DNA from: Microgenomates group bacterium | Lineage (GTDB): Bacteria; Patescibacteriota; Microgenomatia; PFEM01; JBNASD01 | Assembly (NCBI GenBank): GCA_049720225.1 | Contig: JBNASD010000001.1 | Span: forward strand, 228,733 to 292,732 | Reading direction: 5' to 3' | DNA: 64,000 bases | Shown here: positions 8,264 to 50,966 of the stretch, piece by piece | How positions within the stretch are numbered: the first letter of the stretch is position 1 | Layout: each line of letters begins with the position of its first letter | Notes under the pieces: generated by a model | The model's database searches: none | What the model saw: the letters and a program-made list of their open reading frames with translations, nothing else | What the model was told of the DNA's origin: nothing | Translations under genes and position numbers: made by a program

Positions 8264-9192
8264 AAAATTCTGGCAAAATAATTAATAGTTCTTTTTAAAC
8301 CTTCTTCTAATTTAATTTTTGGTTCCCAACCTAATTTTTCTTTAGCTAAACTAATGTCTGGCCGTCTTTGTTTTGGATCATCTTTTGGTAACGGTAAAAA
8401 TACAATTTTTGATTTACTTTTAGTAATTTTTAAAACTAATTTTGCTAACTGCAAAACCGTAAATTCTCCTGGATTTCCTAAATTAATCGGCCCATTTTCA
8501 TTACTTATCATCATTTTTATCAAACCATCAATTAAATCATCAATATAACAAAAAGAGCGAGTTTGACTCCCATCACCATAAACTGTTAAAGGCTCCCCTT
8601 TTAAGGCCTGAACAATAAAATTAGAAACTACCCGACCATCATCCGGTCGCATTCTTGGTCCGTAGGTATTAAAAATTCTGACAATTTTTGTCTCTAAGCC
8701 AAATTTTTTCCGGTAATTTTCTATTAAGCTTTCGGCAAATCTTTTTCCTTCATCATAACAACTCCGCGGACCAATAGGATTGACATTTCCCCAATAAGAT
8801 TCTTTTTGAGGATGAACTAGAGGATCACCATAAACCTCGGAAGTAGAAGTATGTAAAAATTTAGCTTTTTTTTCTCTCGCTAAATCAAGCATATTTTTCA
8901 CTCCATAAGAACTTACTAACAAAGTTTCAATGGGAAATTGAGAATAATCAGGAGGAGAGGCAGGACAAGCTAAATTCCAAATTTCTTCAATTTTCTCTTT
9001 GATTTTTAAAGGCTTAATGATATCGTGATAAATAAAATCAAAATTTTTATATTTTTTAAGTTCTTCTATATTCTTTTTCTGTCCGCTAATAAAATTATCT
9101 ACCCCAATTACTTTAATTTTTAACTTAAGTAATTTTAAACATAAATTAGAACCGATAAAACCGGCGGCGCCGGTAACTAAAGCAGTTTTCAT
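8260..9192 (-). CDS. uxs: UDP-glucuronate decarboxylase (UDP-xylose synthase, UXS-type SDR).
   Basis: ALVTGAAGFIGSNLC is the Rossmann GxxGxxG region. LACPASPPDYSQFPIETL, TSTSEVYGDPLVHPQKESYWGNVNPIGPRSCYDEGKR and IFNTYGPRMRPDDGRVVSNFIVQALKGEPLTVYGDGSQTRSF are near-diagnostic UXS/ArnA-C-domain motifs. Confidence 0.85.
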   Translation of the reverse strand: MKTALVTGAAGFIGSNLCLKLLKLKIKVIGVDNFISGQKKNIEELKKYKNFDFIYHDIIKPLKIKEKIEEIWNLACPASPPDYSQFPIETLLVSSYGVKNMLDLAREKKAKFLHTSTSEVYGDPLVHPQKESYWGNVNPIGPRSCYDEGKRFAESLIENYRKKFGLETKIVRIFNTYGPRMRPDDGRVVSNFIVQALKGEPLTVYGDGSQTRSFCYIDDLIDGLIKMMISNENGPINLGNPGEFTVLQLAKLVLKITKSKSKIVFLPLPKDDPKQRRPDISLAKEKLGWEPKIKLEEGLKRTINYFARIL

Positions 9193-9989
9193 CCGATATT
9201 AACTTTAAAATTTAACTCGGGGTCCCAACGCCATTTTCTTTTGTTTTTATCATCATAATAATGCAAAATATGAAGGCGATAAAAAACTGCTAAAGTGTCT
9301 ATCAGCATTTCCCAAACGGTTTTAAATTTAATCGTGCTGGTAAATTTAAATTGCTCTGGATTTATCTTTATTGGCGCCTCATAAATTTTTTTAAAACCTA
9401 ATCGGCGAGCTACTGCTAATAGTTCCACATCAAAAGCAAATTTTTTTACTAATAATCGCGGCAACACCTTTTCCAAAACCTCTCTTTTAAAAATTTTTAA
9501 ACCAGTTTGGGTATCTTTCACTTTTAATCCAAAAAGAAACCAAATTAACATCTGATAACCAAAACTATAAATTTTTCTTAAAAAGGGATATTCCACTTGA
9601 GAAGCAGGATGACGCTTAGAACCAACAATAATATCTGCTCCATACCATTCCATATGTTCCAAAATCATCGCTAAACCATTAGGGTCAATATCCATTCCCG
9701 CGTCAATAAAAGCAATTAAATCTCCTTTCGTTCTTGCCATTCCATATCGAACTGCATACCCTTTTCCTCTATTAGTTTTGTAACCAACTACCTTAATTTT
9801 TTTTCCTTGAAGTTTTTTTGCTTTTTGATAAGTTTTATCAATCATCCCATCAACAACAATAATCAGTTCATAATCATAACGCATTTTTTCTAATACCCTC
9901 TTAATTTGTTTAATATCCTCCACAATCGTTTTCTCTTGTTTATAAGCAGGAACAACCACCGAAAGAAAATGAGAATTATCTTTTCTCAT
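9189..9989 (-). CDS. GT2 polyprenyl-phosphate glycosyltransferase (Dpm1/ArnC-like).
   Basis: LSVVVPAYKQEKTI...ELIIVVDGMIDKT, AFIDAGMD, and the KVKDTQTGLKIFKREVLEKV (..DTQ.G.K) loop are typical of Dpm1/ArnC/GtrB enzymes. There is a 4-nt overlap with uxs downstream. Confidence 0.8.
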   Translation of the reverse strand: MRKDNSHFLSVVVPAYKQEKTIVEDIKQIKRVLEKMRYDYELIIVVDGMIDKTYQKAKKLQGKKIKVVGYKTNRGKGYAVRYGMARTKGDLIAFIDAGMDIDPNGLAMILEHMEWYGADIIVGSKRHPASQVEYPFLRKIYSFGYQMLIWFLFGLKVKDTQTGLKIFKREVLEKVLPRLLVKKFAFDVELLAVARRLGFKKIYEAPIKINPEQFKFTSTIKFKTVWEMLIDTLAVFYRLHILHYYDDKNKRKWRWDPELNFKVNIG

Positions 9990-14178: not shown

Positions 14179-15849
14179 ATGTTTTATCCGGAAAATTTTC
14201 CTAAAGAAAAAGAAAATGAATTAATAAATTTTTTAAAAGAAACAGAGAAATATTGGCTTAAGAAAAAACCAATTACATATTCTGAGTTTAAAAAATATTT
14301 TTTTCAAATTTTAAAGAATGGTAGATTTTCTTTTTCTAATCCTCCACCTTTTTGGTGGTTAAATTTTATTCTTCTTCGCCACCAAAATATATTTTCTGAA
14401 GATTTTGTTAATTTTTTAAAAAAATATCTTATAAAAACCAAAACTCGTTCTATATCAGGAATCATCCCTGTAGCTATCTTTACAAAACCAGTTGGCTGTC
14501 CTTTCCATTGCGTATATTGTCCAGAAAATAAAACTCTCCCCAAAAGTTATTTAAAAGATGAGCCAGCTTTAAGAAGAGCTATAAGAGAAAAGTTTGATCC
14601 CTATTTTCAAACTCGCAATCGTTTAATTACTCTCCTTTTATCGGGTCATAAAATTGATAAGGTAGAAATTATTATCAAAGGAGGAACTTTTTCCTTCTAT
14701 TCTAAAAAATACCGTCAAAAATTTATAAAAGAAATTTTTGACGCAGCTAATACCGATATTCTGCAACTTATTAAGACAGGAGAGGAAAAAATTTTTAAAA
14801 GTAAGACACTTTCTCAAGCCCAAAAAATTAACGAAAAAGGGTTTTGTCGCATTATAGGAATAAATATTGAAACCCGAACAGATTTTATCAATCCTCAAGA
14901 AATTAAATTTTTAAGAAAATTAGGAGTAACTCATGTAGAATTAGGAATCCAAATCCTTAATGATAAAATTTTAGAGAAAATTAATCGCCAACAAAATATT
15001 AACCAAATAATCAAGGCAACTTTTCTTTTAAAAGAATCAGGATTTAAAATTTCTTATCATTTAATGCCAAATTTGCCTTTTTCTTCTCCTCAAAAAGACT
15101 TAGAAACATTCAAAAAAGTTTTTACTCCTAAATTTTCTCCCGATCATTTAAAAATTTATCCAACAGTAGTCCTTAAAAATTCCCAAATTTATCAATGGTT
15201 AAGAAAAAAATTTTATCGACCTTATTCTCTTGATCAATTAATTAACTTATTAATAAAAGTTAAAACAGAAATTATTCCTCCTTGGGTAAGAATTAGTCGA
15301 TTAGGAAGAGATATTAGTGAAAAAGAAATTATTGCCCCAAAAATTCCTTCAAATTTAAGAGAAATTGTTTTGAGAAAAATAAAATTATTAGGAAAGTTTT
15401 GTCAATGTATCCGTTGTCGAGAAATAAAAAACCAACCATGGAAAGGAAAACCTAAATTAAGAATTTTTCAATATCAAGCTTCTGAGGGAAAAGAATTTTT
15501 TTTGGAGTTTGTAGATCAAGAAAATCATTGTTTAGGATTTTTAAGATTAAGAATTCCCGCCTATCTTATTTATCCCGATAGTTATCTACCATTATTTTCA
15601 TCTTTAAAAAATGCCGCTCTTATTCGTGAACTTCATGTCTACGGGCCAGCTCTTTCTTTAAAAGAGAAAGATTCTATCGCTACTCAACATAAAAATTTAG
15701 GAAAAAAATTACTTAATAAAGCGGAAAAAATTACTCAAAAATTAAAAATAAAAAAAATTGCTATTATCGCAGGAATTGGCGTTCGTGATTATTACCGAAA
15801 ATTAGGATATTGTCTTAAAGAAACCTATATGATAAAAAATCTTAATTAA
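14179..15849 (+). CDS. elp3: Elp3-family radical SAM / GNAT protein (tRNA uridine-34 carboxymethylation enzyme homologue).
   Basis: SGIIPVAIFTKPVGCPFHCVYCP...SYLKDEPALRRAI...FDPYFQTRNRLITLLLSGHKIDKVEIIIKGGTFS matches the Elp3 radical SAM core. The C-terminus IRELHVYGPAL...QHKNLGKKLL...IIAGIGVRDYYRKLGY is the Elp3 KAT/GNAT domain. Confidence 0.85.
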   Translation: MFYPENFPKEKENELINFLKETEKYWLKKKPITYSEFKKYFFQILKNGRFSFSNPPPFWWLNFILLRHQNIFSEDFVNFLKKYLIKTKTRSISGIIPVAIFTKPVGCPFHCVYCPENKTLPKSYLKDEPALRRAIREKFDPYFQTRNRLITLLLSGHKIDKVEIIIKGGTFSFYSKKYRQKFIKEIFDAANTDILQLIKTGEEKIFKSKTLSQAQKINEKGFCRIIGINIETRTDFINPQEIKFLRKLGVTHVELGIQILNDKILEKINRQQNINQIIKATFLLKESGFKISYHLMPNLPFSSPQKDLETFKKVFTPKFSPDHLKIYPTVVLKNSQIYQWLRKKFYRPYSLDQLINLLIKVKTEIIPPWVRISRLGRDISEKEIIAPKIPSNLREIVLRKIKLLGKFCQCIRCREIKNQPWKGKPKLRIFQYQASEGKEFFLEFVDQENHCLGFLRLRIPAYLIYPDSYLPLFSSLKNAALIRELHVYGPALSLKEKDSIATQHKNLGKKLLNKAEKITQKLKIKKIAIIAGIGVRDYYRKLGYCLKETYMIKNLN

Positions 15850-17414
15850 TTACATAATTTTTCTATTTTTATTTTTCCTATTTTCCAGCTTACTTTTTCC
15901 TTTTCAAAATTTCCTCTCCATTCTTTAAACCAATTTTCTTGAGACTCTTGAGGTTCAATAATTAGGTAGATACACTCAGCCCTTTTCGAAGGAGTAATAG
16001 CGTCTATTTTTTTCTTTCCAGGAACATAATCTACTTGATTAGGTAAATAACTATAATCTTCAGGTAAATATTTATATTTTGTTTTTGCCCGCCACCAAAT
16101 GAGATATTGATAAGGGTAGTCATAAACATAAGGAGTAAAACTATAAATTTTCATCCCTTTATTATTAGCATCAGTATAAATTGAATCTATTGCCATTAGA
16201 CGGGTTCTTAAGTTACCTGGGTCTTCAATAAAAGCTTTTTCTAATTTAGTTGGTAAATATTTTTTAATATCCCACCAAAGATAAAAAATAAATATCATTG
16301 CTAATAAAACTTTAAAAATAAGTGATTTCTTCTCCCAAAAAATAAAACCAATAGTTAATCCCAATAAAGTAATAAATATCGCATCAAGAGTTCCAAAATA
16401 CCATACCCAAAGGTTATAGGGATAAATTACAAAAAAACAAAAATTGGCAAACAAAGCAATCAAAAGAATCAAAAATAAGTTTTTTTCCTTTTTCCTTTCT
16501 TTAATTAAGAAAATAACAAAAAACAAAATTAAAAAAACAAAGAAAAAAAGATGGTTGGGAAAGTGAGTTAGAAAATAATTTTTAAAAATTGAAAATCTTT
16601 CTATTAATCTTCTTAACAAATCCATATTGGCAGAAGATAAAGAATTTGCTTTACCACTCAAAAGAAACAAAATTGCTTTAGTTTGAATAAAATTATGACG
16701 AAGATCAAATAATAACTGAGGTAAAAAGGGAATTAAGAAAAAAAACCAAGATTTTATATTTTTAAACAAAAATCTCAATTTTCTAAAAATTAAAAAAACT
16801 AAAAACATCGTCAATAACCAGATTACTCCATCTACGGGTTCAAAGTGAAAAGATAATGCTATTAAAAAAAGAGCAATTTTTAAATAAATTATTTTTTCGT
16901 TATTTATTGTTTTAAATAAAAATAACAAAAATAAAGGAAATAAAAACACAATAGGATTAACATTTAAAGCATAAACAGATTTTTGGAGATAAGGAAAAGA
17001 AAAAAAATAAAGAACCAATAAAAATATTGAAGTTTTTTTATCTTCAAATAAAAGAAAAAATAAAAAGGGTAATAAAAAAGAAACAAAAAGATTCATAATT
17101 AAAAAACTTAATGGGTGTCCTTTAGTTAAAATAAAAAAAGGAATAGCTATCCAATACCAAGTAGGACCATAGAAAACTCCCTGAAGAGAAGTAGTTGGTC
17201 CAATTAGTCTAGGCTTACGAAGAAAAACTATCTCTCTTATATCCAATAAATCTCTTGCTTGATCATAAGTGAAAGCTGTCGAATTTACATACAAAAATAA
17301 AATTTTTGTCCCTAAACTTAAAATTCCTAAAAATAAAACTAAGAAAATCAAAAATTTTGAATCAATTTTTACTTTATTCCCAATCTTTTTTAATGTCAAT
17401 TCTTCTTTTTTCAT
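15846..17414 (-). CDS. Polytopic membrane protein, GT-C-like (ArnT/PMT-related). Paralogue of 45696..47186.
   Basis: The first loop reads YDQARDLLDIREIVFLRKPRLIGPTTSLQGVFYGPTWYWIAIPFF. The paralogue has the corresponding GDEGRDVLIVKRMIVDHKFTLLGPIASVAPFHLGPIYYYLMLPFL. There are more than 10 TM helices and a soluble C-terminal domain. Confidence 0.5.
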   Translation of the reverse strand: MKKEELTLKKIGNKVKIDSKFLIFLVLFLGILSLGTKILFLYVNSTAFTYDQARDLLDIREIVFLRKPRLIGPTTSLQGVFYGPTWYWIAIPFFILTKGHPLSFLIMNLFVSFLLPFLFFLLFEDKKTSIFLLVLYFFSFPYLQKSVYALNVNPIVFLFPLFLLFLFKTINNEKIIYLKIALFLIALSFHFEPVDGVIWLLTMFLVFLIFRKLRFLFKNIKSWFFFLIPFLPQLLFDLRHNFIQTKAILFLLSGKANSLSSANMDLLRRLIERFSIFKNYFLTHFPNHLFFFVFLILFFVIFLIKERKKEKNLFLILLIALFANFCFFVIYPYNLWVWYFGTLDAIFITLLGLTIGFIFWEKKSLIFKVLLAMIFIFYLWWDIKKYLPTKLEKAFIEDPGNLRTRLMAIDSIYTDANNKGMKIYSFTPYVYDYPYQYLIWWRAKTKYKYLPEDYSYLPNQVDYVPGKKKIDAITPSKRAECIYLIIEPQESQENWFKEWRGNFEKEKVSWKIGKIKIEKLCN

Positions 17415-18177
17415 TATATAACTCCCAAAATTTCACATAAGCAGTAATATGATGGAAACCAGAATAAAGCGAAAACACAAAGCCAGGAAAACCATCTAAA
17501 AAACCTTTATGGCGAATAAACAAAAGTAAAAAGGTTTTAATTGCTTGCCATTCTGCTTTTAAATATCCAAAAATACTTGGTTTTTCTCCATTCTTTAGAA
17601 GTTCTTGAGCGGTTAAACTAGTGTAACGATTCGATTTTTTAAGATATTCAGAAAAAGAAGAATAAGGATAGTGAAGTAAATGACTTTTTAGCCAATCAAC
17701 TTTCCCTTTTACCTCCATTTGTTCATGCACAGATTTACAAGGTAGATAAGCTTTTCCTTTTTTAAAAAACCTAATTACTCCATCTGGATATTGGCCGGTT
17801 TTTCTTAACCATCGTCCTAAAAAAAAGTTTTTTCGGGGAATAAAATAAGCTACCACATCATGGGGAGAATTTTTAATTATTCTTTTAATTTCCTTTTTTA
17901 ATTCCAGTGTCACTCTTTCATCCGCATCTAATTGTAAAATCCATTCTCCCCTGCAAACATTAATTGCTTTTTGTTTATTAATATGAAAAATAGGGGGATT
18001 ATCAGTTATTATTAGTTTAGCCCTAAATTTTTTAGCAATTTCTACCGTTTTGTCAGTAGAACCTCCATCAACAATTACAATTTCATCAGCTAAATCTTTA
18101 ATTGAATTAAGACAATCCGTCAGATTGTTTTCCTCATTAAAGGTTGCCAAAGCAACTGAGAGTTTTATTTTTTTCAT
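17374..18177 (-). CDS. Family 2 glycosyltransferase.
   Basis: LSVALATFNEENNLTDCLNSI...IVIVDGGSTDKTVEIA and LQLDADERVT match GT2. It belongs to the same subfamily as 32213..32986 and 34968..35837 (W.K.GQYPD... / GWYPDWQ). Confidence 0.8.
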   Translation of the reverse strand: MKKIKLSVALATFNEENNLTDCLNSIKDLADEIVIVDGGSTDKTVEIAKKFRAKLIITDNPPIFHINKQKAINVCRGEWILQLDADERVTLELKKEIKRIIKNSPHDVVAYFIPRKNFFLGRWLRKTGQYPDGVIRFFKKGKAYLPCKSVHEQMEVKGKVDWLKSHLLHYPYSSFSEYLKKSNRYTSLTAQELLKNGEKPSIFGYLKAEWQAIKTFLLLFIRHKGFLDGFPGFVFSLYSGFHHITAYVKFWELYNEKRRIDIKKDWE

Positions 18178-18192: not shown

Positions 18193-19872
18193 TTAAATTT
18201 CAGCGATTTTAAAAGCGGGCTTTCCGTTAGGAAAGTAAATTATTTTAATTATTTTTGCCTCGGGAGGAATTTCTTCTTCTGTTCCTACTATTAAAACATT
18301 TTTTTGTTTTTCCAGTTTTTTCCAATCAATATTTTCAAAATGAAAATTGGCAAAGTGACGTACGGTGGAAAAACCAAATTTATCGCGAGGAGTTAATATC
18401 ACTTCTTTTTGAAATATCTCTGGCGGGTATTGTAAATAAAACAAAAATAAAATATACGGCTGATCATATTTCTCCGTCACATAAATTTTAGAATAATTAT
18501 CTTTAATAGGTTTAAGATATTCTACTAATTCTCTAAACCCATATTCCCATGCTTGAGGAGAAGTTTTAGGATAATGAACAAAATATTGATGAAGAAAGTA
18601 AAAAAAATTCCAAAAAAGTAAAGCGGAAAGAAATAAACAAATAAAGGAATTTAGAAATTTAGATTTAAATAAATTTAATAAATTAAAAAATCCATAAGCA
18701 GAGATTATTATTAAAGGAAAAACCATATTATGAGCTCTTAAAGCGCTCGGTACTTGAAAAGTTAACGCTCCCGCAATTGGTGCAATTAATAACCAAACAA
18801 AAGGAAGAAACCAATTTTTGGGTTTTTTTCTAAAAAAGAAATATATCCCGGCAAATATAAAAATTAAATCCAAAAAATACATTTCTCCTACTGCTGACGA
18901 GTTATTTCTTTCCACCCTATCTCCAATTAGAAAAAGAAAATTTCCATCAAAAAAAGATAAATAATTCTTTAAAAATTGAATTCCATAAATAAATGGTCGA
19001 TTATGAAGAATTCGTGCTAAAAATTCATTGGAGTTTTGATGTTCTCCTCGCAAACTTAAAATCAAACTATAAGGCCCAATATCCGAAAAAAGACTTAATC
19101 CAGAAAATCTTGCGGTTCCTGCAGGACCAAAAAAATCAACTAAAAGAGGAATCGAAATTAAACCCGCAATTATTCCTCCTATTAAAAAATGTTTAAAATT
19201 CTTTTTTAAAAAAATGTGTCTTTTAAAAAAGACAATCAAATTCAAACCTAAAAGGGGAATAATTATTCGAGGGCTATGATAGGTATATAAAGAAAATACC
19301 CAAAACAAAAAGGAAAAAATAAAAAATTTAGGTTCTTTTAAGGCTCTTAAAAAGAAGTAAACTCCAAAAAGAATAAAAGTGCTCGCTATATTTGTCTCCC
19401 ATCCTCCCCTTGAAAAATGAATATGCCAAGGAGAAATTGCTAAAAATAAAGCAGAAATTAAAGCTAATTTTTGATTGCCAAATATTTCTTTTACTAATAA
19501 AAATATTCCTAATATCCCTCCTATTCCTATTAAAGCTGAAGGTAATCTTACTGCCCATTCATTAAGACCTAATATTTTTACAAAAGGTAATACTAAATAA
19601 AAATATCCGCCTGGTTTATAATCGGCAAAAGATTTAAAATGAATTGGCCAAAAATTTCCATGTTCATCTTTACCAGTTAAAATCAAACTATAAGCATTGT
19701 AGCCAATTGCGGCCTCATCGGCATTTAAACCTATAGGAAATTTATCTAATTCCCACAAACGCAGAAATCCCGCTAAAAGAATAATTAAAGTTAAAAAGAT
19801 TTTTTGAAAATCGAAAATTATCCGTCTACTGCGGATCCGACTTTGGCGGAAAAATCGAAAATTTTTCTTCAT
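18193..19872 (-). CDS. GT39/GT83-like (PMT_2/ArnT-like) GT-C membrane glycosyltransferase; tandem copy 1 of 4.
   Basis: The first periplasmic loop is LNADEAAIGYNAYSLILTGKDEHGNFWPIHFKSF (acidic DE motif plus TGKDE). It also has AVRLPSALIG...AISPWHIHFSRGGWETN, more than 10 TM helices and a C-terminal soluble domain. Confidence 0.8.
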   Translation of the reverse strand: MKKNFRFFRQSRIRSRRIIFDFQKIFLTLIILLAGFLRLWELDKFPIGLNADEAAIGYNAYSLILTGKDEHGNFWPIHFKSFADYKPGGYFYLVLPFVKILGLNEWAVRLPSALIGIGGILGIFLLVKEIFGNQKLALISALFLAISPWHIHFSRGGWETNIASTFILFGVYFFLRALKEPKFFIFSFLFWVFSLYTYHSPRIIIPLLGLNLIVFFKRHIFLKKNFKHFLIGGIIAGLISIPLLVDFFGPAGTARFSGLSLFSDIGPYSLILSLRGEHQNSNEFLARILHNRPFIYGIQFLKNYLSFFDGNFLFLIGDRVERNNSSAVGEMYFLDLIFIFAGIYFFFRKKPKNWFLPFVWLLIAPIAGALTFQVPSALRAHNMVFPLIIISAYGFFNLLNLFKSKFLNSFICLFLSALLFWNFFYFLHQYFVHYPKTSPQAWEYGFRELVEYLKPIKDNYSKIYVTEKYDQPYILFLFYLQYPPEIFQKEVILTPRDKFGFSTVRHFANFHFENIDWKKLEKQKNVLIVGTEEEIPPEAKIIKIIYFPNGKPAFKIAEI

Positions 19873-21509
19873 AAAGTTTCTACGATTCTAAAAGCTAATT
19901 TACCATTAAAAAAATTTATTTCTTTTAAAATTCTTGCCTCTTCTTCTCTAATATCTTCTAAAGGAATTTCATAGGTAGCCCCAATATAGAGTCTTTTTTT
20001 TACAAACCTATCTTTAGGCCAATAAATCTCCCTAAAAACAATATTATCAATTCTTTCTACTCTTCCCACATCACCTTCTGGATGTTCAATCAATTTTGCT
20101 TGTTTTTGATAATTTTCCGGTGGGTATTGAGAATAAAAAAGCCAAAAAATATAAGGTTGACCATATTTAGAAGTAAAAACAACTTCTTCATAATCATCTG
20201 TTTTATCCTTAATAAATTCCACTACTTGTTTGTATCCGTAAAGCCAATCTTCAGAATAAGTAAAGGGGAGATGAATAAAAAATTGATCTAAATAAAAAAT
20301 GAAAGAAAAAAACCAACCAAAAATTAAAATTCCTAAAATCCCAACTTTAAAAAAATGAGGAATTTTCTTGACAATTTGAAAAACAAAATAAATTCCTAAA
20401 GCTATCAACAAAGAAAGAGGAATCACTATAAAGTAGGAACGAGTTGCTTGAATAATATCGCGACTTAAAGCGGCGGGTAAAGGAGCAATTGCCAACCAGT
20501 ACCACCAAAATCCTTGTTTTTTAGAATTTTGACTAATCAAATAATAAACTCCCAATGGTAAAAATAAAATTCCCATATGATTTAAAACTCCTACGTAAGG
20601 AACGCTATGACGGTGATTACTCCAATCCCCTTCAAAAAATAAAAATCGTGGAGAAAAATGATTTAAATAACGTTCTAAAATTCCTCGCCCAAAATAAACT
20701 AAATTATTATGAAATAAATTCCAGGATAAATTTTTAAAATTATTTTCTTGCTCTAAAATGAATCTCTTTTCTTCAGGCGGTCGAGGATAAGAAAAAATAC
20801 TCATTACTTTTAGTCTTCCCCCTGCCTTACCAAAAAAGGTAAAATAAAAAACCGGCAAAACTAAAATCCCCATTATTAAAACCCCTAAAGTTATTTTTTT
20901 CCACTCTTTTTTCTTCAGTTTTTCAGGAAAAAATAATATTAACCCTAAAATTAAAAGAGGAGTAATTAATTTAGCGGAATTATAAACATGAAAACACAAA
21001 CCAAAAAACAAACCACTAACCAACCATTTTCTTTTAAGAAAAAAGTAAATTCCTAAAAGCAAAAAAACTAATAAAACGTTAACCTCCCAAGCCCCATGGG
21101 AATAATGATAGTGCCATGGCGAAAAAGCCAAAACTATACTAGTCAAAAGAGAAATCATTTCATTGTTAAAAATCTCTTTTACCACCAAAAAGGCCAGTAA
21201 AATACTTAAAGTGCCAAAAAACGCCGCGGGAAATCTTACCGCAAATTCATTTAAACCAAAAACTGCCTCGGAAATAGCGGTTAAATAAACATAAACTGGT
21301 GTTTTATAATCGCCAAAAGCTTTAAAAATTAGAGGTAAAAAATTTCCATATTCATCTTTTCCTGTTTTTAAAATTGACCAAGCATTATAGCCCCACGAAG
21401 GTTCATCCCAGTGCATTGAAGGAGGTGCACTACCTAATTTAAATATCCTAATTCCCAAGGCAAAAATAATAACTAAAAAAAGAAAAATTTTAATATTTTT
21501 TTCTTTCAC
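19869..21509 (-). CDS. GT39-like GT-C membrane glycosyltransferase; tandem copy 2 of 4.
   Basis: MHWDEPSWGYNAWSILKTGKDEYGNFLPLIFKAF...AVRFPAAFFG...AFSPWHYHYSHGAWEVN is collinear with copy 1. Confidence 0.8.
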   Translation of the reverse strand: MKEKNIKIFLFLVIIFALGIRIFKLGSAPPSMHWDEPSWGYNAWSILKTGKDEYGNFLPLIFKAFGDYKTPVYVYLTAISEAVFGLNEFAVRFPAAFFGTLSILLAFLVVKEIFNNEMISLLTSIVLAFSPWHYHYSHGAWEVNVLLVFLLLGIYFFLKRKWLVSGLFFGLCFHVYNSAKLITPLLILGLILFFPEKLKKKEWKKITLGVLIMGILVLPVFYFTFFGKAGGRLKVMSIFSYPRPPEEKRFILEQENNFKNLSWNLFHNNLVYFGRGILERYLNHFSPRFLFFEGDWSNHRHSVPYVGVLNHMGILFLPLGVYYLISQNSKKQGFWWYWLAIAPLPAALSRDIIQATRSYFIVIPLSLLIALGIYFVFQIVKKIPHFFKVGILGILIFGWFFSFIFYLDQFFIHLPFTYSEDWLYGYKQVVEFIKDKTDDYEEVVFTSKYGQPYIFWLFYSQYPPENYQKQAKLIEHPEGDVGRVERIDNIVFREIYWPKDRFVKKRLYIGATYEIPLEDIREEEARILKEINFFNGKLAFRIVETL

Positions 21510-23134
21510 TTTATTTTTCCAATTAAAAAAGCAGTTTTCCCATCTTGATATTTTATCTCTTCTAAAAGTTCTATTTCAAAATTAATTTCTTGTGGAGAAA
21601 TTGTTATTAACTCACCTGTTTTTAGTTTAATTTTCCTCCAATCATCAATAAACCAATATTTTCCGATTCTATCAACATTTACCCATTTGTCTTCCCTATC
21701 ATAACGAATAACCTCCTTTTCTTCTTGATATAATTTAGGATCATATTTTTGATAAAAAAGATAAAAAATATGAGGTTCACCGTAAAATTTGGTTACCAAA
21801 ATTCGTTCGTAATCTTTTTCCAATAAACTTAATTTTTGATAAAGAGGCTTATATCCTGCTTGCCATGTGGAAGTATGAACTTTCGGGTAAGAAAAAAAAT
21901 AATCAAATAAGAAATTTTTCCAACTAATAAAGGAAAAAAACAATATTCCTCCTAAAAAAACCGTTTTTATTTTTTTATTCCTAATATTTTCCCAAATCAT
22001 TGTTGCTCCTCCCGCATTTAAAAAAGGAATTAGTAATAAAAGAAAAATTGCCCTTACTGGATGGGCAGTTCCAGTAAAGCTATTGGCAATTGGAGAAACT
22101 AAAAGCCACCAAACTAAGAATAAAAATATTTTCCTTTCTTTTTTTAAAAACCAAAAAATTCCTAAAATTATTAACGGTAATTGCCATAAATATGCCATTC
22201 CCCTTTGGGGAACGGTATATTGTGCTAAATTAGGTCCTTTTAAAAATAAAAAATCCAAAGAAAAATGACTAAAATAATTCTTAAAGAAGATTAAAGAATA
22301 AAATACAGGGCGATTATAAAAAAGCCGGCAAAAAAATTCTGGATTCTTTTCTAAACAAATTCCTCTTTTTTCATTAATCTGGGCTAAAATTCCTTGATTG
22401 GTAAAAATTCCTACTTTCGCCAATCTTTCTGGTGTCCCTCTAAATCCGCTTAAAACTAAAGGAAAAGAAAATAAAATCATCAATAATAAAGGGGGGATTA
22501 TTTTTTGCCATTGTCGTGAAATAAAAAAGAAAATCATCCCTCCCAATAATAGAGGGGTAAAAATTCGACAAGCATTATAAGTATATAAAGAAAGAGCAAA
22601 AATCAAGAAAGAAAAATAAAAAAATTTATTATTTTTAATTCCTTTGAAAAAAAATAAGGTTCCCAAAATTAATAAGAAAAAAGCTAAATTAGCTTCAAGC
22701 GCCATCCGACTTGTCTGAATATGCCAAGGTAAAATCGCCAGAAAAAAACCGGTTAAAAAGGGAAAAATTGATGTTTCTTTTATAATTTCTTTTGCCAGAA
22801 AAATTACAATTAATACGCTTAAAACACCAAAAATTACACTCGGCAATCTCACCGCTGTTTCATTTAATCCAAAAATCCCTAGGAATGGAGTAGCGGTATA
22901 AATATAAACCGGCAATTTATACTCCCCAAAAGCTTTAAAGTTTAAAGGCAAAAATATTCCCCATTCATCTTTACCAGTTTTTAAAATTGACCAAGCGTTA
23001 TAACCAATGGAGGCTTCATCGGAAATAAAAGTTGGATGATTGCCTATATCCCAAATTCTTACCCCGAAAGCCAAAATAAAAATTAAAATTAAAAAAATTT
23101 TTTCTTTTTTACTCATTTTCTTTAATATCCGCAC
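21506..23134 (-). CDS. GT39-like GT-C membrane glycosyltransferase; tandem copy 3 of 4. An alternative start is MSKKEK at 23116.
   Basis: FISDEASIGYNAWSILKTGKDEWGIFLPLNFKAF...AVRLPSVIFG...AILPWHIQTSRMALEAN. Confidence 0.8.
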   Translation of the reverse strand: MRILKKMSKKEKIFLILIFILAFGVRIWDIGNHPTFISDEASIGYNAWSILKTGKDEWGIFLPLNFKAFGEYKLPVYIYTATPFLGIFGLNETAVRLPSVIFGVLSVLIVIFLAKEIIKETSIFPFLTGFFLAILPWHIQTSRMALEANLAFFLLILGTLFFFKGIKNNKFFYFSFLIFALSLYTYNACRIFTPLLLGGMIFFFISRQWQKIIPPLLLMILFSFPLVLSGFRGTPERLAKVGIFTNQGILAQINEKRGICLEKNPEFFCRLFYNRPVFYSLIFFKNYFSHFSLDFLFLKGPNLAQYTVPQRGMAYLWQLPLIILGIFWFLKKERKIFLFLVWWLLVSPIANSFTGTAHPVRAIFLLLLIPFLNAGGATMIWENIRNKKIKTVFLGGILFFSFISWKNFLFDYFFSYPKVHTSTWQAGYKPLYQKLSLLEKDYERILVTKFYGEPHIFYLFYQKYDPKLYQEEKEVIRYDREDKWVNVDRIGKYWFIDDWRKIKLKTGELITISPQEINFEIELLEEIKYQDGKTAFLIGKIK

Positions 23135-24836
23135 TGGAAAATATCACGAACGAAATTAACCCATCAGGCGTCTTAATCTCTTTAACAAATCTCACATAAG
23201 GAGATTTTTTGATATCCAAATCAGGAATGGCGAGTTCTGCGGGATTAACAATATATAAAGTTTTTAAATCTCCTTCTCCCCTTTTTACTCTTCCTAAATC
23301 AGGTGAATAAAAATGATACTTTCCCAAAGCATTTACCGTAAGAGTAATTTCTTTTTGGACTTCATAAGGAGAAAATTTTCCATAAAATAAACTATAAACC
23401 GTCGAAGGCTCCCAACTTGGAGAAATATAAATTCTTTCATATTTATTTTCCACCTTATTTACATATTCGAACACTTTTTTATACCCATAATTCCACCACC
23501 GTCCGGAAATTTTTGGATAGTGAACAAAATAATGATGAAAATAATTGAAGCACGAAAGTATAATTACCAAACTTAAAGCTACCCCAAAAATTATTTTGAA
23601 TTTTTTATTTTTTAAATAGTTAAAAAACTCACCAATTCCTAAGGCAGTAAAAATCTGTAACCACGGCAAAAATAAAAACAATCTTAAAGCATGTGTACCT
23701 CCATTTAAAGTCAAAGAAGCAGGAATGGGAGCTAAAACTAACCACCACAAACTAAATTGGAAAAATTTATTTTTTTCTTTTATTGCCTGCCAAAAAGCAA
23801 AAATTAAACCTAATATTAAAAACGGCAATTCCCATAAATACATTTCTCCTCTTCCCCCAATTGAATGGCGAGGATTAGGGTCACCGCTTCCGAATAAAAA
23901 TGAAGGAGAAATTGCTGAAAGATAATTTTTTACAAAATCGTCAAACCAAAAAACCACTTTATTATGTAAAACCCGCTCAAAAATTCCCTGATAATCACAT
24001 TTTTCCCTTGCTAATCTCACTTTTTCTGCTGTTTGGGGATTATTAAATATACTGATTCCTAAAAAGCGCGCTTGACTAGTACCTTTTAAAAAATCTTTTC
24101 CTAATGGTAAAAGAACAATAAATAAAACTATCAAAAAAATCATCAAATTTTTTCTTTCGCTTAAAACTTCTTTTCGCCATAAATAAAATAGGACAACTAA
24201 AATTAACGGTAAAAAAAGTTTAGAAGTATTATAAGCATAAGGAGTTAATCCTAAAAAAATAGCTGAAAGAATAAACAAAAATCTTTTTTTATTTTCTAAA
24301 CCCTTCCAAAAACACAAAATTCCCAAAGGAAATAAAACTGGTAAAAAATTTACCTCCAGTCCTATCCGACTGATATGAAAATGCCAAGGAGAGATTGCTA
24401 ACAAAAATGCACTTAATAAAGCAATATTTTTATTTTTTGTAAATTTTTGAACTAAAAAGAAAACAGCTAAAACACTTAACATTCCTAAAATCACTGCTGG
24501 TAATCTTACTGCCATTTCAGTCAATCCAAAAATTGCTACAAACAAGGTATCCAAATAAATATACAAAGGCACTCGCCAATCCCCTAAAGATTGAAAATGA
24601 ACTGGTAGAAAATTACCAAAATAATCTTTTCCTGTTTTTAAAATCGAATAAGCTTGATAACCAGTATCCACTTCGTCTCCAAATAACCCTGGTGGTATCC
24701 GTGTTACTTCCCAAAAACGCAAAAATCCTGCCACTAAAAAAATTAAAATCAAAAAAAGAAGCTTCACTTCATTTTTATTTTTTTTAAAATTTTTCTCCAT
24801 TTTTGCCCACTCCAGATAATAAAGGTTAAAAGCCAA
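23109..24836 (-). CDS. GT39-like GT-C membrane glycosyltransferase; tandem copy 4 of 4. The start is probably the internal MEKNFKK near 24800.
   Basis: LFGDEVDTGYQAYSILKTGKDYFGNFLPVHFQSL...AVRLPAVILG...AISPWHFHISRIGLEVN. Confidence 0.8.
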   Translation of the reverse strand: MAFNLYYLEWAKMEKNFKKNKNEVKLLFLILIFLVAGFLRFWEVTRIPPGLFGDEVDTGYQAYSILKTGKDYFGNFLPVHFQSLGDWRVPLYIYLDTLFVAIFGLTEMAVRLPAVILGMLSVLAVFFLVQKFTKNKNIALLSAFLLAISPWHFHISRIGLEVNFLPVLFPLGILCFWKGLENKKRFLFILSAIFLGLTPYAYNTSKLFLPLILVVLFYLWRKEVLSERKNLMIFLIVLFIVLLPLGKDFLKGTSQARFLGISIFNNPQTAEKVRLAREKCDYQGIFERVLHNKVVFWFDDFVKNYLSAISPSFLFGSGDPNPRHSIGGRGEMYLWELPFLILGLIFAFWQAIKEKNKFFQFSLWWLVLAPIPASLTLNGGTHALRLFLFLPWLQIFTALGIGEFFNYLKNKKFKIIFGVALSLVIILSCFNYFHHYFVHYPKISGRWWNYGYKKVFEYVNKVENKYERIYISPSWEPSTVYSLFYGKFSPYEVQKEITLTVNALGKYHFYSPDLGRVKRGEGDLKTLYIVNPAELAIPDLDIKKSPYVRFVKEIKTPDGLISFVIFSSADIKENE

Positions 24837-25579
24837 TATTTAATTATTCCATTGTAAATTTTACTACTTTTTACTAACCATTTTCTCGCTTGATCTCCAA
24901 CTTTTTTAGCACTTTGACCATGATGATGTAAAATTTTTACCGTAGGAAGATAATAAATTTTCAATCCTGCCTTTTTAACTCGCCGGCAATAATCTAAATC
25001 TTCAAAATACATAAAATACCTCTCGTCAAATAAACCTATTTTTTTAATTGTTTTTCTAGAAATCAACATCACTGCTCCGGTTACTGCATCCACTTCTAGC
25101 GGTTTTTCCCCTAAAGGCGTATATTTTTCATATGCTCCTTTTTCTCCTAACCAAAATTCTTTAAACGCTCTCCATAAAGAAGGAAAATGATAAACAGAAG
25201 ATTGAATTGAACCATCAGGATTAATTAATTTCGCTCCAATTACTCCAACATCAGGATGAGATTTTGCAAAGCTTAAAAGATTTTTTAAAGAACCGGGTTT
25301 AACTTTAGTATCAGGATTTAAAAGGAGAATATAATCTCCCCTTGCCTTCTTAATTCCTTGATTTACCGCTTTCGCAAATCCTAAATTTTTTTTATTTTCA
25401 ATAACCCTTAACTCTTTAACGCCTAACTTTTTAACTATCTTAACCGAATTATCAGTTGAAGCATTATCAACAATAATAATTTCGTAACTCAATTCATTTT
25501 TATTTTTTAAAATTGATTCAATACATTCTTTAAGCAGTTTTCCAACATTGAAACTAACAATAATTATTGATAAATCCAT
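24764..25579 (-). CDS. Family 2 glycosyltransferase.
   Basis: LSIIIVSFNVGKLLKECIESI...EIIIVDNASTDNSV, LLLNPDT and a DxD-like FEDLDY. Confidence 0.85.
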   Translation of the reverse strand: MDLSIIIVSFNVGKLLKECIESILKNKNELSYEIIIVDNASTDNSVKIVKKLGVKELRVIENKKNLGFAKAVNQGIKKARGDYILLLNPDTKVKPGSLKNLLSFAKSHPDVGVIGAKLINPDGSIQSSVYHFPSLWRAFKEFWLGEKGAYEKYTPLGEKPLEVDAVTGAVMLISRKTIKKIGLFDERYFMYFEDLDYCRRVKKAGLKIYYLPTVKILHHHGQSAKKVGDQARKWLVKSSKIYNGIIKYWLLTFIIWSGQKWRKILKKIKMK

Positions 25580-25586: not shown

Positions 25587-26456
25587 TTAATTAAAATAAT
25601 TAAAAATTTCTTCATCGCTAACTTTTTTTTCTTTTAACTCCTTAATTCGGCGAGAAAAAATTAAATAAGATTTTTTAACTGCCATTAAAAATGGACACCA
25701 ATATCCTGGTTTAGTTAATAACTTCATTCCCAACCAAAACTTATGCTCAAAAATCATTTTGGGTGAAGTAATATTTTTCCAAATAAATAAGAGACGATTT
25801 CTTTCGGCAATTAAAGAAACATACTTTTTAGAAAATCGACTAATTGTTCCTTCATGTTTATGATAAACCACTGACCGAGGGTCCCAAATAACTTTATACC
25901 CCCTTTTCCATGCCCGATAGGATAAGTCAACATCTTCCCAATAAAAAGGATGATATAGGTTATCCATTCCTCCTAATTTTTCCCAAATATCTTTCCTAAA
26001 AGCGCCACTTCCTCCTGAAGCCCAAAAAGAAATATGAGGTTTTTGAGTTTTTCCTCCCGGTTGATGTTCTATAAATCCTTTCTGCCAAATACCTCTTACC
26101 CAACTCCATTGAGGTTCTCCTAAAGAAACCGCAAAAACTTTTGAATCAGCAAAATCTTCTTCAAGGGGTTTTAAAAAATCTTTTTCTGGAATTACATCGT
26201 TATTTAACAAAATTACAATCTCTCCCCTTGCTTCTTTTACTCCTCGATTAACTGAATAAACAAATCCCAAATTTTTTTCATTTTTAATAATCTTTAATTT
26301 TTTAATTTTTAAATTTTCAATTATCTTAAGCGAATTATCAGTAGATCCATCATCTACAATAATTATTTCATCTGAATTCGCTTTTAGTACATAGGATAGA
26401 TTTTCCCTTAATAGCTTTTCTCCATTCCAATTAGGAATTACAATTGAAAATTTCAT
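25587..26456 (-). CDS. Family 2 glycosyltransferase.
   Basis: FSIVIPNWNGEKLLRENL...IIIVDDGSTDNS and ILLNNDV. Confidence 0.85.
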   Translation of the reverse strand: MKFSIVIPNWNGEKLLRENLSYVLKANSDEIIIVDDGSTDNSLKIIENLKIKKLKIIKNEKNLGFVYSVNRGVKEARGEIVILLNNDVIPEKDFLKPLEEDFADSKVFAVSLGEPQWSWVRGIWQKGFIEHQPGGKTQKPHISFWASGGSGAFRKDIWEKLGGMDNLYHPFYWEDVDLSYRAWKRGYKVIWDPRSVVYHKHEGTISRFSKKYVSLIAERNRLLFIWKNITSPKMIFEHKFWLGMKLLTKPGYWCPFLMAVKKSYLIFSRRIKELKEKKVSDEEIFNYFN

Positions 26457-49778: not shown

Positions 49779-50966
49779 TTAACCTATCCTTTCTTGAATC
49801 CTTTTTAAAAAGGGAACTTTCCATGTTTTCCAGATAAAAATATTATACATTGAATAATTATAAGGAATAACAAAGAATCCGATCGCAATTACTAAATAAA
49901 TCTGCCGCCATTGATCGCCAAAAATTTTCGCTAAAATTCCCACTACTAACCATTGTAATATTACTGCCCCTAATGAAGTCAAGTTGAATTGAAAAAATTT
50001 CCAAATAATTCGCTTAAAACCAGTAATTCTTTTTTCTGAAAATGTCCACAAATTATTTAAGGTAAAATTAGAAATAATTGCTAATTCTGCACCTAATCCC
50101 GCCGCTGGTCCGGGAGATAAACCCAATCGATAAAAAAGTTCCAAACCTAAAGCATTAATTATATACCCAATAAAACCCACTACCGCAAATTTTAAAAAAC
50201 GAATTGTTGTCGGATCATTTAAGCGTAATTTTATTACTCCCAAAAATGTATTTATCACCTCTTTAAAAGTAATCTTGCTTTCTCCTTTTTCTCGTAATTT
50301 AAACTTTAAAGGAATTTCTATTATTTTAGCTCCGTTTTTAACAATCTGATAAAGAATTTGCGTCTTATAAAAGAATCCATTTCCAACCTGACTAAAATCA
50401 ACTTTATCTAAAACCCCTTTCACGCGCGTTAATTTTAACCCTGTGGAAACATCTTTTACTTTATTTATTTGAGGAAAAAATAAGACAAAACGACTAAATA
50501 ATCCCCCTCCAATAGTTAAAAGTTTTCGATACCAACTCCATTCTTTGGGAATTGAACCGCCCTTTACAAAGCGAGAACCAATTACATAATCATATCCTTG
50601 ATCAAATTTTTCTACTAAATCAATAATATAGCGTGGATCATGTTGAAAATCTGCGTCAAATTCAATTACCGCCGCCGCCCCCATTTTTTCCATGGCATAT
50701 TTCATTCCTCTTTTATAAGCCGCTCCTAATCCTTGTTTTTTCCCTAAAGAAAGGTGAATATTGGAATATTTTTTCATTTTTTCTTTCACTACATCGGCAG
50801 TCCCATCTGGAGAATTATCATCAACTACTAAAATTTCCATCTGGTGATTTTTAATCTGAGGAAAAATTTCTTCTTCTAAAACATCAATCATTTTTTGAAT
50901 ATTTTCTTTCTCGTTGTAAGTGGGAATAATTACAATAATCTTCATTTTTGTACCCTTTCTCGCCAA
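49779..50966 (-). CDS. GT2 polyprenyl-phosphate mannosyl/glycosyl-transferase with a C-terminal GtrA-like 4-TM domain (Ppm1/Dpm1-like).
   Basis: IIVIIPTYNEKENI...EILVVDDNSPDGTADVV, EFDADFQHDP, VKDVSTGLKL, and a C-terminal FLKFAVVGFIGYIINALGLELFYRL... (GtrA-like). Confidence 0.8.
   Translation of the reverse strand: MARKGTKMKIIVIIPTYNEKENIQKMIDVLEEEIFPQIKNHQMEILVVDDNSPDGTADVVKEKMKKYSNIHLSLGKKQGLGAAYKRGMKYAMEKMGAAAVIEFDADFQHDPRYIIDLVEKFDQGYDYVIGSRFVKGGSIPKEWSWYRKLLTIGGGLFSRFVLFFPQINKVKDVSTGLKLTRVKGVLDKVDFSQVGNGFFYKTQILYQIVKNGAKIIEIPLKFKLREKGESKITFKEVINTFLGVIKLRLNDPTTIRFLKFAVVGFIGYIINALGLELFYRLGLSPGPAAGLGAELAIISNFTLNNLWTFSEKRITGFKRIIWKFFQFNLTSLGAVILQWLVVGILAKIFGDQWRQIYLVIAIGFFVIPYNYSMYNIFIWKTWKVPFLKRIQERIG

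Follow-up and report, generated by a model that had tools for sequence, protein, structure and literature searches.

Four consecutive genes on the minus strand of an uncultured, ultra-small CPR bacterium of the Microgenomates group encode, by full-length alignment, true collinear paralogues of the GT-C/PMT_2 superfamily, and comparison of orthologous loci shows that the duplications are ancient and the array lineage-wide. Within the 64-kb stretch of DNA analyzed here (the window), the four open reading frames (ORFs) lie where the preliminary description had located them and are referred to, in order of transcription, as D (23109..24800, 563 aa), C (21506..23116, 536 aa), B (19869..21509, 546 aa, the protein chosen for modelling) and A (18193..19872, 559 aa, the last GT-C of the array). 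We consider A–D to be, probably, non-redundant extracytoplasmic GT-C class A glycosyltransferases which use polyprenyl-phosphate-sugar donors in a multi-component cell-envelope glycosylation pathway, a reading in which the type of donor, the succession of steps and the kind of acceptor are inferred.

The true starts of C and D are likely shorter than the longest ORFs, which extend to a GTG at 23134 for C and to 24836 for D. The start of D at ATG 24800 is preceded by a Shine-Dalgarno-like GGAG 9 nt upstream, agrees with the NCBI call (MGB9911229.1) and is backed by a 562-aa orthologue with 84 % identity in locus L086; the array feature therefore ends at 24800 and not at 24836. C starts at ATG 23116, as in the NCBI annotation, B at a GTG and A at an ATG. 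A is entered at NCBI as MGB9911226.1, ‘GT39 family protein’, and B, which is 100 % identical to P0001, bears the NCBI name ‘ArnT family glycosyltransferase’. Neighbouring genes overlap by 4 nt (B/A and C/B), 8 nt (D/C; 26 nt with the longest ORF) and 37 nt (D and the upstream GT2 gene). From these tight overlaps alone we infer that A–D may form one transcript and be translationally coupled; promoter and terminator scans gave results at chance level.

Pairwise BLASTP comparison of A–D gave 32.7–37.2 % identity over ~545 residues (E 1e-78 to 1e-93), far above expectation from shared hydrophobic composition, and in the MAFFT alignment of the four proteins identity to the first sequence was 35–37 %. 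The 82 invariant columns of this alignment are spread over loops, transmembrane (TM) segments and the C-terminus, which contradicts a similarity confined to hydrophobic low-complexity segments and bears out the collinear paralogy proposed in the preliminary description. All four likewise have in common a first loop with the conserved D-E...TGKD pattern and, at the C-terminus, a conserved soluble domain; the motifs quoted for them are approximately right and inexact for some of the copies: the first loop reads YSLILTGKDE in A and TGKDY in D, C carries AILPWHIQTS, and the C-terminal motif is YDQPY in A and WEPSTVYSLFY in D. At the DNA level, the sole repeat common to all four genes is a 123-nt stretch of 67–80 % identity, which encodes the first-loop motif.

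The AF2 model of B (pLDDT 93.1, pTM 0.91) shows a predicted GT-C class A fold. All 27 Foldseek matches with E <= 1e-3 were GT-C enzymes (ArnT, STT3/PglB/AglB, ALG9/12, PMTs and DPY19), the best being ArnT (5ezm/5f15, TMq 0.54–0.55, 12 % identity), followed by the oligosaccharyltransferases (OSTs) and ALG9/12; these three groups align with the model along its whole length. A profile match to ArnT (E = 3e-5) places K69 on ArnT K85 and E142 on ArnT D158 (residue numbers follow B throughout). D35/E36 and D52, in the first extracytoplasmic loop after TM1, are invariant in a 74-sequence alignment and kept in 99–100 % of the members per clade, and D35, E36, D52, R92, Y176, R232 and R357 are retained in 97–100 % of the members of every clade. 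In the large external loop, clade C alone is without D295 and R300 (kept in 0 % of its members). Across the family, no region is more conserved than the catalytic first loop (0.76 within clades versus 0.66 family-wide), whereas within-clade conservation exceeds family-wide conservation most strongly in the 227–312 loop (0.51 versus 0.39) and in the C-terminal domain (0.46 versus 0.36). Since the solved GT-C enzymes are only 12–17 % identical, with TMq ~0.5, the active-site details are extrapolated.

Each paralogue ends in a family-specific soluble domain, encoded on the minus strand at 18196–18579 (A), 19872..20252 (B), 21509–21880 (C) and 23112–23510 (D), which measures ~120–135 aa (~125 aa) rather than the ~150 aa first estimated. 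Modelled separately, it forms a predicted soluble alpha/beta domain (pLDDT 92.5) and presumably faces outside. No significant PDB fold match, PDB sequence match or Pfam match was found for it, and as sole query in the PDB fold search it did not retrieve the ArnT periplasmic domain. Its profile retrieves 2,351 of 1.84 billion cluster representatives, always in C-terminal position. The last TM helix is followed by a W-x-Y-G-[YF] motif whose third position is occupied by Q, E, L, H or N, and in no clade by Asp; the WWDYG motif of oligosaccharyltransferases (STT3/PglB/AglB) is thus absent, and we rejected this identity. When the C-terminal profile was searched against PDB sequences, no OST was among the matches either.

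In a neighbour-joining tree, A, B, C and D each fall into their own orthologue clade across Woese-, Shapiro-, Ames-, Collier- and Gottesmanbacteria, with 50–84 % identity between orthologues versus 30–38 % between paralogues. A, B and C occur once per locus; clade A is the most widely conserved (73 members, 72 loci), clade C comprises 71 members in 70 loci, and clade D is more variable and often multi-copy (91 members, 60 loci). Gene order is kept as well: C-B-A forms an uninterrupted run in 60 of 82 loci, D lies upstream of it in at least 50, and a GT2 homologue directly follows A in 56 of 70. Together, the separate lineage-wide clades, the kept gene order and the identity gap indicate that the duplications are older than the split of these Microgenomates lineages, so that the ‘local tandem amplification followed by divergence’ initially proposed cannot be upheld as a local event. 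All four copies are under purifying selection, with dN/dS between 0.09 and 0.20 (B 0.09–0.11, A 0.12–0.15, C 0.19–0.20). Upstream of C, the number of extra members varies from 0 to 4 even between close relatives, and the array of L086 has two additional divergent family members and one more GT2 at its 5' end, so that a pathway of strictly four steps cannot be general.

The GT2 gene directly downstream of the array (17374..18177, minus strand, 267 aa, no TM helix predicted; Pfam Glycos_transf_2, E = 6e-22) belongs to the conserved core module C-B-A-GT2 and shows a dN/dS of 0.07–0.11. Its best relatives of solved structure are GmaR (E = 1.4e-17) and SunS, and it resembles these protein/peptide glycosyltransferases rather than GtrB or ArnC. 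It overlaps by 41 nt with a gene for a 522-aa polytopic membrane protein (15846..17414, minus strand, ~10 hydrophobic segments), a remote GT-C-like protein judging from a BLASTP match to the PMT_2 protein at 45696–47198 (31 % identity over 219 aa) and a domain-level match to the N-module profile of the family (i-E = 8e-5); it has no Pfam or NCBIfam match and lacks the C-terminal domain of the family. Upstream of D, two further minus-strand GT2 genes (24764–25579 and 25587–26456; Pfam GT2, E = 1e-32 and 2.5e-26) are oriented as the array and syntenic in L001, L003, L004 and L086, an adjacency which is not conserved in more distant loci.

No donor synthase directly adjoins the array. A candidate lies ~25 kb away (49779..50966, minus strand; Pfam GT2 and GtrA_DPMS_TM) and is homologous to dolichol-phosphate-mannose synthase (DPMS), matching the P. 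furiosus enzyme (PDB 5mlz) over residues 7–351 with E = 1.7e-47; it is the one DPMS-like synthase in the window, and homology alone does not reveal its sugar. A second candidate polyprenyl-phosphate-sugar synthase, a GT2 with NCBIfam PgfS, ArnC and PpgS matches below cut-off (9189..9989, minus strand), adjoins one of the two Wzx-like flippase genes of the island (9976–11217); in 46 of 84 loci, a homologue of this GT2 lies no more than 10 kb from the array. The island also holds a PAP2 gene and a DgkA-like gene, whose products could recycle the lipid carrier, and the nucleotide-sugar genes identified there are RmlB, an RmlA-like gene and Ugd. Most of the 64-kb stretch consists of glycan genes, with roughly a dozen enzymes of GT-C type and over a dozen GT2s; it also encodes a 1,637-aa SdrD/SpaA/PKD adhesin-like protein.

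In the mechanism that we propose, a GT2 synthase would produce the donor inside the cytoplasm before it is flipped across the membrane. By analogy with ArnT and the monoderm PMT_2 enzymes, each enzyme would move a single sugar from polyprenyl-phosphate-sugar to a cell-envelope acceptor on the outside of the membrane. In the N-terminal multi-helix module, the first external loop would present the catalytic acidic residues D35/E36, D52 and E142 and the putative phosphate-binding basic residues K69, R92, R232 and R357, and the large second external loop together with the C-terminal domain may set linkage or acceptor specificity. The ancient duplicates, held in the fixed order D..C-B-A-GT2 in what would be one translationally coupled operon, would all be catalytically competent and carry out different, probably successive, steps on one surface glycopolymer or glycoprotein.

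A different reading, which we regard as unlikely, is that A–D are PMT/GT39-type protein O-glycosyl(mannosyl)transferases, each modifying Ser/Thr residues in its own secreted proteins or surface proteins, or PMT-like dimers with different substrates. With the eukaryotic and actinobacterial Pmt1/Pmt2/Pmt4 enzymes of GT39 they share the DE motif in loop 1, after TM1, and a partial similarity to Pfam PMT (PF02366), which matches all four; against its 22.7-bit cut-off, B and D score above (34.0 and 35.2 bits) but A and C below (21.3 and 20.7). Pfam PMT_2, in contrast, is matched above cut-off by all four and scores higher than PMT in every case (in D, E = 1.5e-12 versus 1.3e-8). GT39 architecture is defined by PMT_4TMC, a module at the C-terminus, and by MIR, a luminal domain of the eukaryotic enzymes; neither occurs among the Pfam hits of A–D at E <= 0.01. 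The structural likeness is partial as well: most Pmt1/Pmt2/Pmt4 chains align with the B model over 258–277 N-terminal columns (TMq 0.32–0.33), the single longer alignment being that of C. thermophilum Pmt4 (9i5k_A, 522 columns, TMq 0.44), and the second half of the proteins is organized otherwise, so that we rejected a whole-length likeness. Of the two modelling templates suggested earlier, ArnT thus fits over the whole length and Pmt1–Pmt2 mostly over the N-terminal ~270 columns, and of the original label ‘GT39/PMT_2-like’ we retain PMT_2/GT-C and not GT39/PMT. Mannose, also suggested, appears here only in the Pfam name, and no GDP-mannose pathway gene was identified within the window, although a DPMS-like synthase is present. 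The likeness of the conserved adjacent GT2 to GmaR and SunS and the adhesin-like protein would suit protein glycosylation, and GT-C protein O-glycosylation is known in monoderms; yet the streptococcal protein-glycosylating GT-Cs are YfhO-type and not PMT_2 (PMC12041528), and the monoderm PMT_2 enzymes listed act on LTA, WTA and wall polysaccharides (PMC8035078).

It is also conceivable, and in our view quite unlikely, that the products of C-B-A (with or without D) work as subunits of a single, obligately hetero-oligomeric GT-C machine, comparable to the EmbA–EmbB or Pmt1–Pmt2 heterodimers. The gene order fixed over deep evolutionary time, the single copies of A, B and C per locus and the 4-nt start/stop overlaps, suggestive of translational coupling and matched stoichiometry, would agree with such a machine, as would PMTs being reported to function as dimers (PMC7759382, PMC12705809). 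Yet no two-module fusion occurs among 425 family ORFs, every copy has the full catalytic residue set and none resembles a pseudo-enzyme scaffold, and the number of D-type and further upstream copies varies. An extended form of this idea, which we hold to be similarly doubtful, would have C-B-A(+D) work outside the membrane as an obligate hetero-oligomeric assembly line, building a Microgenomates-specific wall glycopolymer entirely from polyprenyl-phosphate-monosaccharide donors (compare mycobacterial arabinan/mannan), with the C-terminal domain as a previously unseen acceptor-binding fold. Finally, a recent local tandem amplification yielding redundant or diversifying copies, e.g. for surface-glycan variation under phage or host pressure, would account for the copy-number differences at the 5' end of the array between close relatives, as in L086, and for the frequently multi-copy clade D; but paralogues of only 32–38 % identity whose notable four-copy DNA similarity is limited to the first-loop stretch, the presence of A, B and C as one orthologue each in the loci of several candidate phyla and the low dN/dS values make it highly improbable, and for the four genes of this window it is effectively refuted.

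For the favoured reading, i.e. envelope glycosylation by non-redundant GT-Cs, ArnT (GT83; C. metallidurans, PDB 5EZM/5F15) is the closest known enzyme by both sequence profile and fold, and is built alike, its GT-C class A module (multi-TM, N-in) preceding a soluble domain at the C-terminus. It differs in that the NCBIfam ArnT equivalog NF009784 is matched by B only, with 25.2 bits versus a cut-off of 567, and in its context: Ugd is present in the window, whereas ArnC-like GT2s remain below cut-off, ArnA has only sub-threshold SDR matches (41 and 85 bits versus 777) and the scanned ORFs of the window included no ArnB, ArnD or ArnE/F. CPR bacteria have, to our knowledge, no LPS and no lipid A acceptor. 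Given the score and the missing arn context, an identity as ArnT/GT83 aminoarabinose transferase was rejected.

The monoderm three-component systems (GtlB, GttB, CsdD/CsdF, GtsC, GacL, YkcB) belong to the same Pfam family, PMT_2, and likewise lie among wall-polysaccharide genes, and their logic of GT2 synthase, GtrA/Wzx flippase and GT-C would be shared by the array and the candidate genes of the island; such systems have been described (PMC11127046), and their PMT_2 GT-Cs glycosylate LTA, WTA, rhamnan and SCWP (PMC8035078). They pair one GT-A with one GT-C, whereas here 3–7 paralogous GT-Cs stand side by side in conserved order, next to a GT2 unlike GtrB, and each copy bears a C-terminal domain without known relative. 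Mycobacterial embCAB offers a likeness in organization, with tandem GT-C paralogues that share an operon and are each extended by an extracytoplasmic domain at the C-terminus, and, presumably here too, polyprenyl-phosphate-monosaccharide donors and a wall glycan assembled outside the membrane. The Emb proteins are larger (~1,100 aa versus ~550 aa), with EmbA–EmbB forming a heterodimer, and carbohydrate-binding modules (CBMs) are found in Emb and AftD (PMC11127046). Pfam Arabinose_trans is not matched by A–D, no Emb chain is among the Foldseek matches listed, AftA and AftD are weak fold matches (TMq ~0.4), and the C-terminal domain shows neither a CBM nor a significant PDB match; an EmbCAB-like GT53 + CBM identity was thus rejected, the tandem-paralogue organization being all that is common.

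Taken together, these results do not overturn current understanding: known polyprenyl-phosphate-dependent glycosylation systems have the same fold, catalytic residues and general pathway logic, and the array, real and lineage-wide, represents a variant of an established enzyme class and not a new kind of system, its most likely function, by analogy, being that of membrane enzymes adding lipid-carried sugars to the cell surface. The CPR/Patescibacteria represent a large, mostly uncultured part of bacterial diversity whose envelope chemistry is essentially unknown, and the C-B-A-GT2 module, with its order conserved across several candidate phyla, sits at the core of a glycan-gene stretch. The family is a defined target for heterologous expression, for structure determination (the C-terminal domain having no solved relative) and for glycan analysis, and could be usable as a lineage marker for envelope type. 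If the assembly-line reading is true, ultra-small CPR bacteria would spend several per cent of their genome on an envelope glycan pathway without characterized counterpart.

The four genes, which follow one another head-to-tail at 18193-24836 on the minus strand and are termed here A to D with transcription in the order D, C, B, A, comprise A (18193-19872, ORF of 559 aa), B (19869-21509, 546 aa), C (21506-23134, longest ORF 542 aa) and D (23109-24836, longest ORF 575 aa). C and D probably start within their longest frames, at the ATG at 23116 (536 aa) and the ATG at 24800 (563 aa), respectively: the D start is preceded by GGAG 9 nt upstream, the D orthologue of the closest relative measures 562 aa, consistent with the 563-aa product, and the NCBI annotation of the same contig agrees with both shorter starts. 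With these revised starts, the overlaps are 4 nt for B/A and for C/B, 8 nt for D/C, and 37 nt between the upstream GT2 gene and D. In this AT-rich DNA, scanning for promoters and terminators as operon limits yielded counts equal to those expected from shuffled sequence.

Aligned with MAFFT, the four proteins share 35-37 % identity with the first sequence and 82 invariant columns distributed along their whole length, and BLASTP pairwise comparisons gave 32.7-37.2 % identity over ~545 residues (E 1e-78 to 1e-93). All four exceed the Pfam PMT_2 cut-off, the PMT profile being weaker and above cut-off for B and D only. A to D are therefore true paralogues, as proposed in the preliminary description, and the alternative that it had raised, a likeness due to hydrophobic composition alone, is ruled out by the alignment and the BLASTP results. 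The motifs it listed were essentially right, if inexact for some copies; the C-terminal domain, put there at about 150 aa, measures about 125 aa.

The age of the duplications was addressed by phylogeny and synteny. B orthologues (45-84 % identity) are much closer to B than its own paralogues are, the same cassette is present on related contigs, and in a first NJ tree of three loci each gene fell into one of four position-specific clades. Scanning one genome per GTDB species returned at least 544 relatives, of which the best 80 loci, from Woese-, Shapiro-, Ames-, Collier-, Gottesman- and Daviesbacteria and unclassified Microgenomates/Patescibacteria, were analyzed and contain 389 family members. 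An NJ tree of 371 sequences assigned 73 members in 72 loci to clade A, 80 in 77 loci to clade B, 71 in 70 loci to clade C and 91 in 60 loci to clade D, with 56 members left unassigned. C-B-A are contiguous in 60 of 82 loci, contig ends interrupting most of the exceptions; at least 50 loci have a D-clade gene upstream, and in 56 of 70 the gene directly following A is a homologue of the GT2 at 17374-18177. Among the loci listed, arrays comprise 3 to 7 members. Comparison with the two closest relatives gave dN/dS values of 0.12 and 0.20 (D), 0.19 and 0.20 (C), 0.09 and 0.11 (B) and 0.12 and 0.15 (A), at dS values near saturation (0.74-1.15).

Taken together, the deep orthologue clades, the conserved order and the low dN/dS indicate that the duplications behind A to D are ancient, with A, B and C each kept as a single copy under purifying selection and in fixed order. 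The local tandem amplification suggested previously is thus not borne out by the phylogeny, and recent duplication or gene conversion was likewise rejected, since the sole notable DNA similarity among all four copies is a 123-nt stretch encoding the first loop and the orthologue clades are deep. Fusions of the Rosetta-stone type, sought as a sign of a complex, were absent from 425 family ORFs.

At its 5' end the array is plastic, as close relatives carry extra family members or an extra GT2, while C-B-A stays fixed. The closest relative, L086, harbors two extra divergent members upstream of D (3447-6705) and an additional GT2 of 230 aa that separates A from the conserved GT2; locus L001 likewise carries an extra divergent member upstream of D (4267-5733), these additional members being ~31-35 % identical to all four paralogues. 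Many cassette-bearing GTDB species-representative MAGs (loci L006-L085) bear the title 'uncultured Gammaproteobacteria' or 'Pseudomonadales', and one that of 'Clostridia'; these names are probably placeholders or taxonomic mislabels.

An AlphaFold2 model of B, built on a 74-sequence alignment (mean pLDDT 93.1, pTM 0.91), retrieved only GT-C enzymes from the PDB at E <= 1e-3 using Foldseek. ArnT, with which a structural comparison had been suggested, was the best match (5ezm/5f15, TMq 0.54-0.55, 12 % identity), along with ALG9/ALG12 (TMq 0.51-0.53) and STT3/PglB/AglB (about 0.5). Pmt1/Pmt2/Pmt4 reached TMq 0.32-0.33, most chains aligning over ~270 N-terminal columns only, and one C. thermophilum Pmt4 chain reached 0.44 over 522 columns. 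ArnT was also the sole significant match of the four-protein profile among PDB sequences (E = 3e-5). In this alignment, once a 3-residue difference between the published numbering and the chain index is taken into account, K69 (B numbering, as for all residues below) falls on ArnT K85 and E142 on ArnT D158, two positions with published residue roles. At the superfamily level A to D belong to GT-C class A. Tests specific to the ArnT, GT39/PMT, OST and Emb families placed them in none of these, and in NCBI they carry the generic annotations 'ArnT family' or 'GT39 family'; of the previous designation as GT39/PMT_2-like, only the PMT_2 part is supported. In their putative mode of action, they most resemble the PMT_2-type GT-Cs of three-component systems.

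Positions conserved in at least 90 % of the family concentrate in the first external loop (P29, D35, E36, G40, Y41, A43, S45, T49, D52, G55 and P59) and further include R92, P131, S137, R138, Y176, R232, R357 and a few glycines. Since each clade retains the catalytic-type residues D35, E36, D52, R92, Y176, R232 and R357 in 97-100 % of its members, no copy resembles an inactive enzyme. Conservation of the first loop holds in all clades (0.76 within-clade versus 0.66 family-wide), and the drop from within-clade to family-wide values is steepest in the external loop at 227-312 (0.51 versus 0.39) and in the C-terminal domain (0.46 versus 0.36). In clade C, D295 and R300 of the 'FFEGDWSNxRH' loop motif are lost and GEPHI replaces GQPYI in the C-terminal domain. 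Strict thresholds across all clades left almost no specificity-determining positions because clade D is heterogeneous; restricted to clades A-C, 8 sites emerged, including D295/R300 and the GQPYI motif. As judged from sequence conservation, this pattern would fit a common donor chemistry combined with diverged acceptor or linkage recognition.

The C-terminal domain, which would lie outside the membrane as in ArnT, was modelled alone (pLDDT 92.5), and Foldseek against the PDB returned nothing significant (best E = 0.15, TMq <= 0.22). Its profile matched no PDB sequence, and Pfam gave no match at E <= 10. Among 1.84 billion cluster representatives, 2,351 matched the profile at E <= 1e-3, with the domain at the C-terminal end in every match listed and full-length carriers of ~530-600 aa; in 382 proteins from 87 related loci it is invariably joined to the GT-C module. 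In A to D it opens, just after the last TM helix, with a conserved W-x-Y-G-[YF]-K motif (20226-20240, B residues 424-428; 'WWNYGY' in D), whose likeness to the OST WWDYG motif is superficial, the Asp never being present and no PDB sequence matching. A by-eye resemblance to the membrane protein at 15846-17414 ('YDYPYQYLIWW' versus 'YGQPYIFWLFY') was also dismissed, as the domain profile matches only A to D in the window.

Most of the window (1-57000; G+C about 25-37 % window-wide) forms one glycan-biosynthesis island, and tRNA and Rfam scans of the whole window gave no match. The island encodes at least 14 GT2s and two GT4s together with two Wzx-like flippases. Recycling of the lipid carrier could fall to its PAP2 phosphatase and DgkA-like kinase, and its sugar enzymes are RmlB (above cut-off), an RmlA-like protein, Ugd and two other SDR sugar-modifying enzymes. 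The ~12 polytopic GT-C-related proteins of the island comprise A to D, two more PMT_2 proteins (44182-47198), a GT87-like protein (29921-31186), four weaker candidates including 15846-17414, and a 612-aa PMT_2-like-TPR fusion (3858-5696, plus strand), in which a membrane module matching the N-terminal GT-C profile of the family (E = 2.5e-11) precedes C-terminal TPR repeats, an arrangement reminiscent of eukaryotic TMTC O-mannosyltransferases. One GT2 (49779-50966, minus strand) carries a fused GtrA-type TM domain and aligns along its entire length with the Pyrococcus dolichol-phosphate-mannose synthase (5mlz, E = 1.7e-47), and the island thus has at least one credible polyprenyl-phosphate-hexose synthase. 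Together with the preceding Ugd and an SDR and the two GtrB/ArnC-like GT2 paralogues that follow (49052-49777 and 48300-49055), it could constitute a polyprenyl-phosphate-sugar donor module. Three minus-strand GT2s (17374-18177, 32213-32986 and 34968-35837) are paralogous, with 37-40 % identity to the first.

Other genes of the window include two in divergent orientation that encode paralogous polytopic membrane proteins of ~660 aa (35843-37819, minus; 37882-39903, plus; 37 % identity, E = 8e-100), both rich in hydrophobic segments; Pfam matched neither, and an NCBIfam scan of 35843-37819 gave no match. An Elp3-type radical SAM/GNAT tRNA-modification gene (14179-15849, plus strand; TIGR01211 above cut-off) lies amid minus-strand glycan genes, a placement shared by the relatives L086 and L087. 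A B12-binding radical SAM protein (2292-3821, minus strand), nearest to hopanoid-associated HpnJ but below cut-off, is encoded among glycosyltransferases, with homologues <=10 kb from the arrays in 19 of 84 loci. At 58959-63872 (minus strand), adjoining a CAP-domain protein gene (57921-58913), a 1,637-aa product with PKD, SpaA-like, six SdrD_B, CarboxypepD_reg and DUF11 domains and C-terminal hydrophobic segments resembles a large surface adhesin.

The best-supported reading is that A to D are four non-redundant extracytoplasmic enzymes, which would depend on polyprenyl-phosphate-sugar donors and form part of a multi-component pathway for transmembrane glycosylation, a class reviewed in PMC8035078 and PMC11127046. 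Together with the GT2 genes they would be encoded in one translationally coupled, presumably co-transcribed operon, and the four enzymes may act successively on one glycopolymer. By analogy with monoderm PMT_2 precedents (PMC8035078), a wall polysaccharide or teichoic-acid-like polymer would fit as acceptor, and the recurrent array neighbors, namely a GT4, a Wzx-like gene, an ArnC/PgfS-like GT2 and an uncharacterised multi-TM membrane protein, fit such a polymer as well. A protein acceptor is also possible: the closest solved relatives of the conserved adjacent GT2 (17374-18177) are GmaR and then SunS, which are protein/peptide glycosyltransferases, and the adhesin-like product encoded nearby is a conceivable glycosylation target.

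Among the papers covered by full-text searches, none described such an array in Microgenomates or CPR, and none described a lineage-wide, order-conserved array of 3-7 paralogues, the C-B-A-GT2 core module, or a family-restricted C-terminal domain lacking a solved relative. For a small-genome CPR bacterium the island represents a large outlay, and the array, while no surprise to a glycosyltransferase specialist, is useful for CPR envelope biology.
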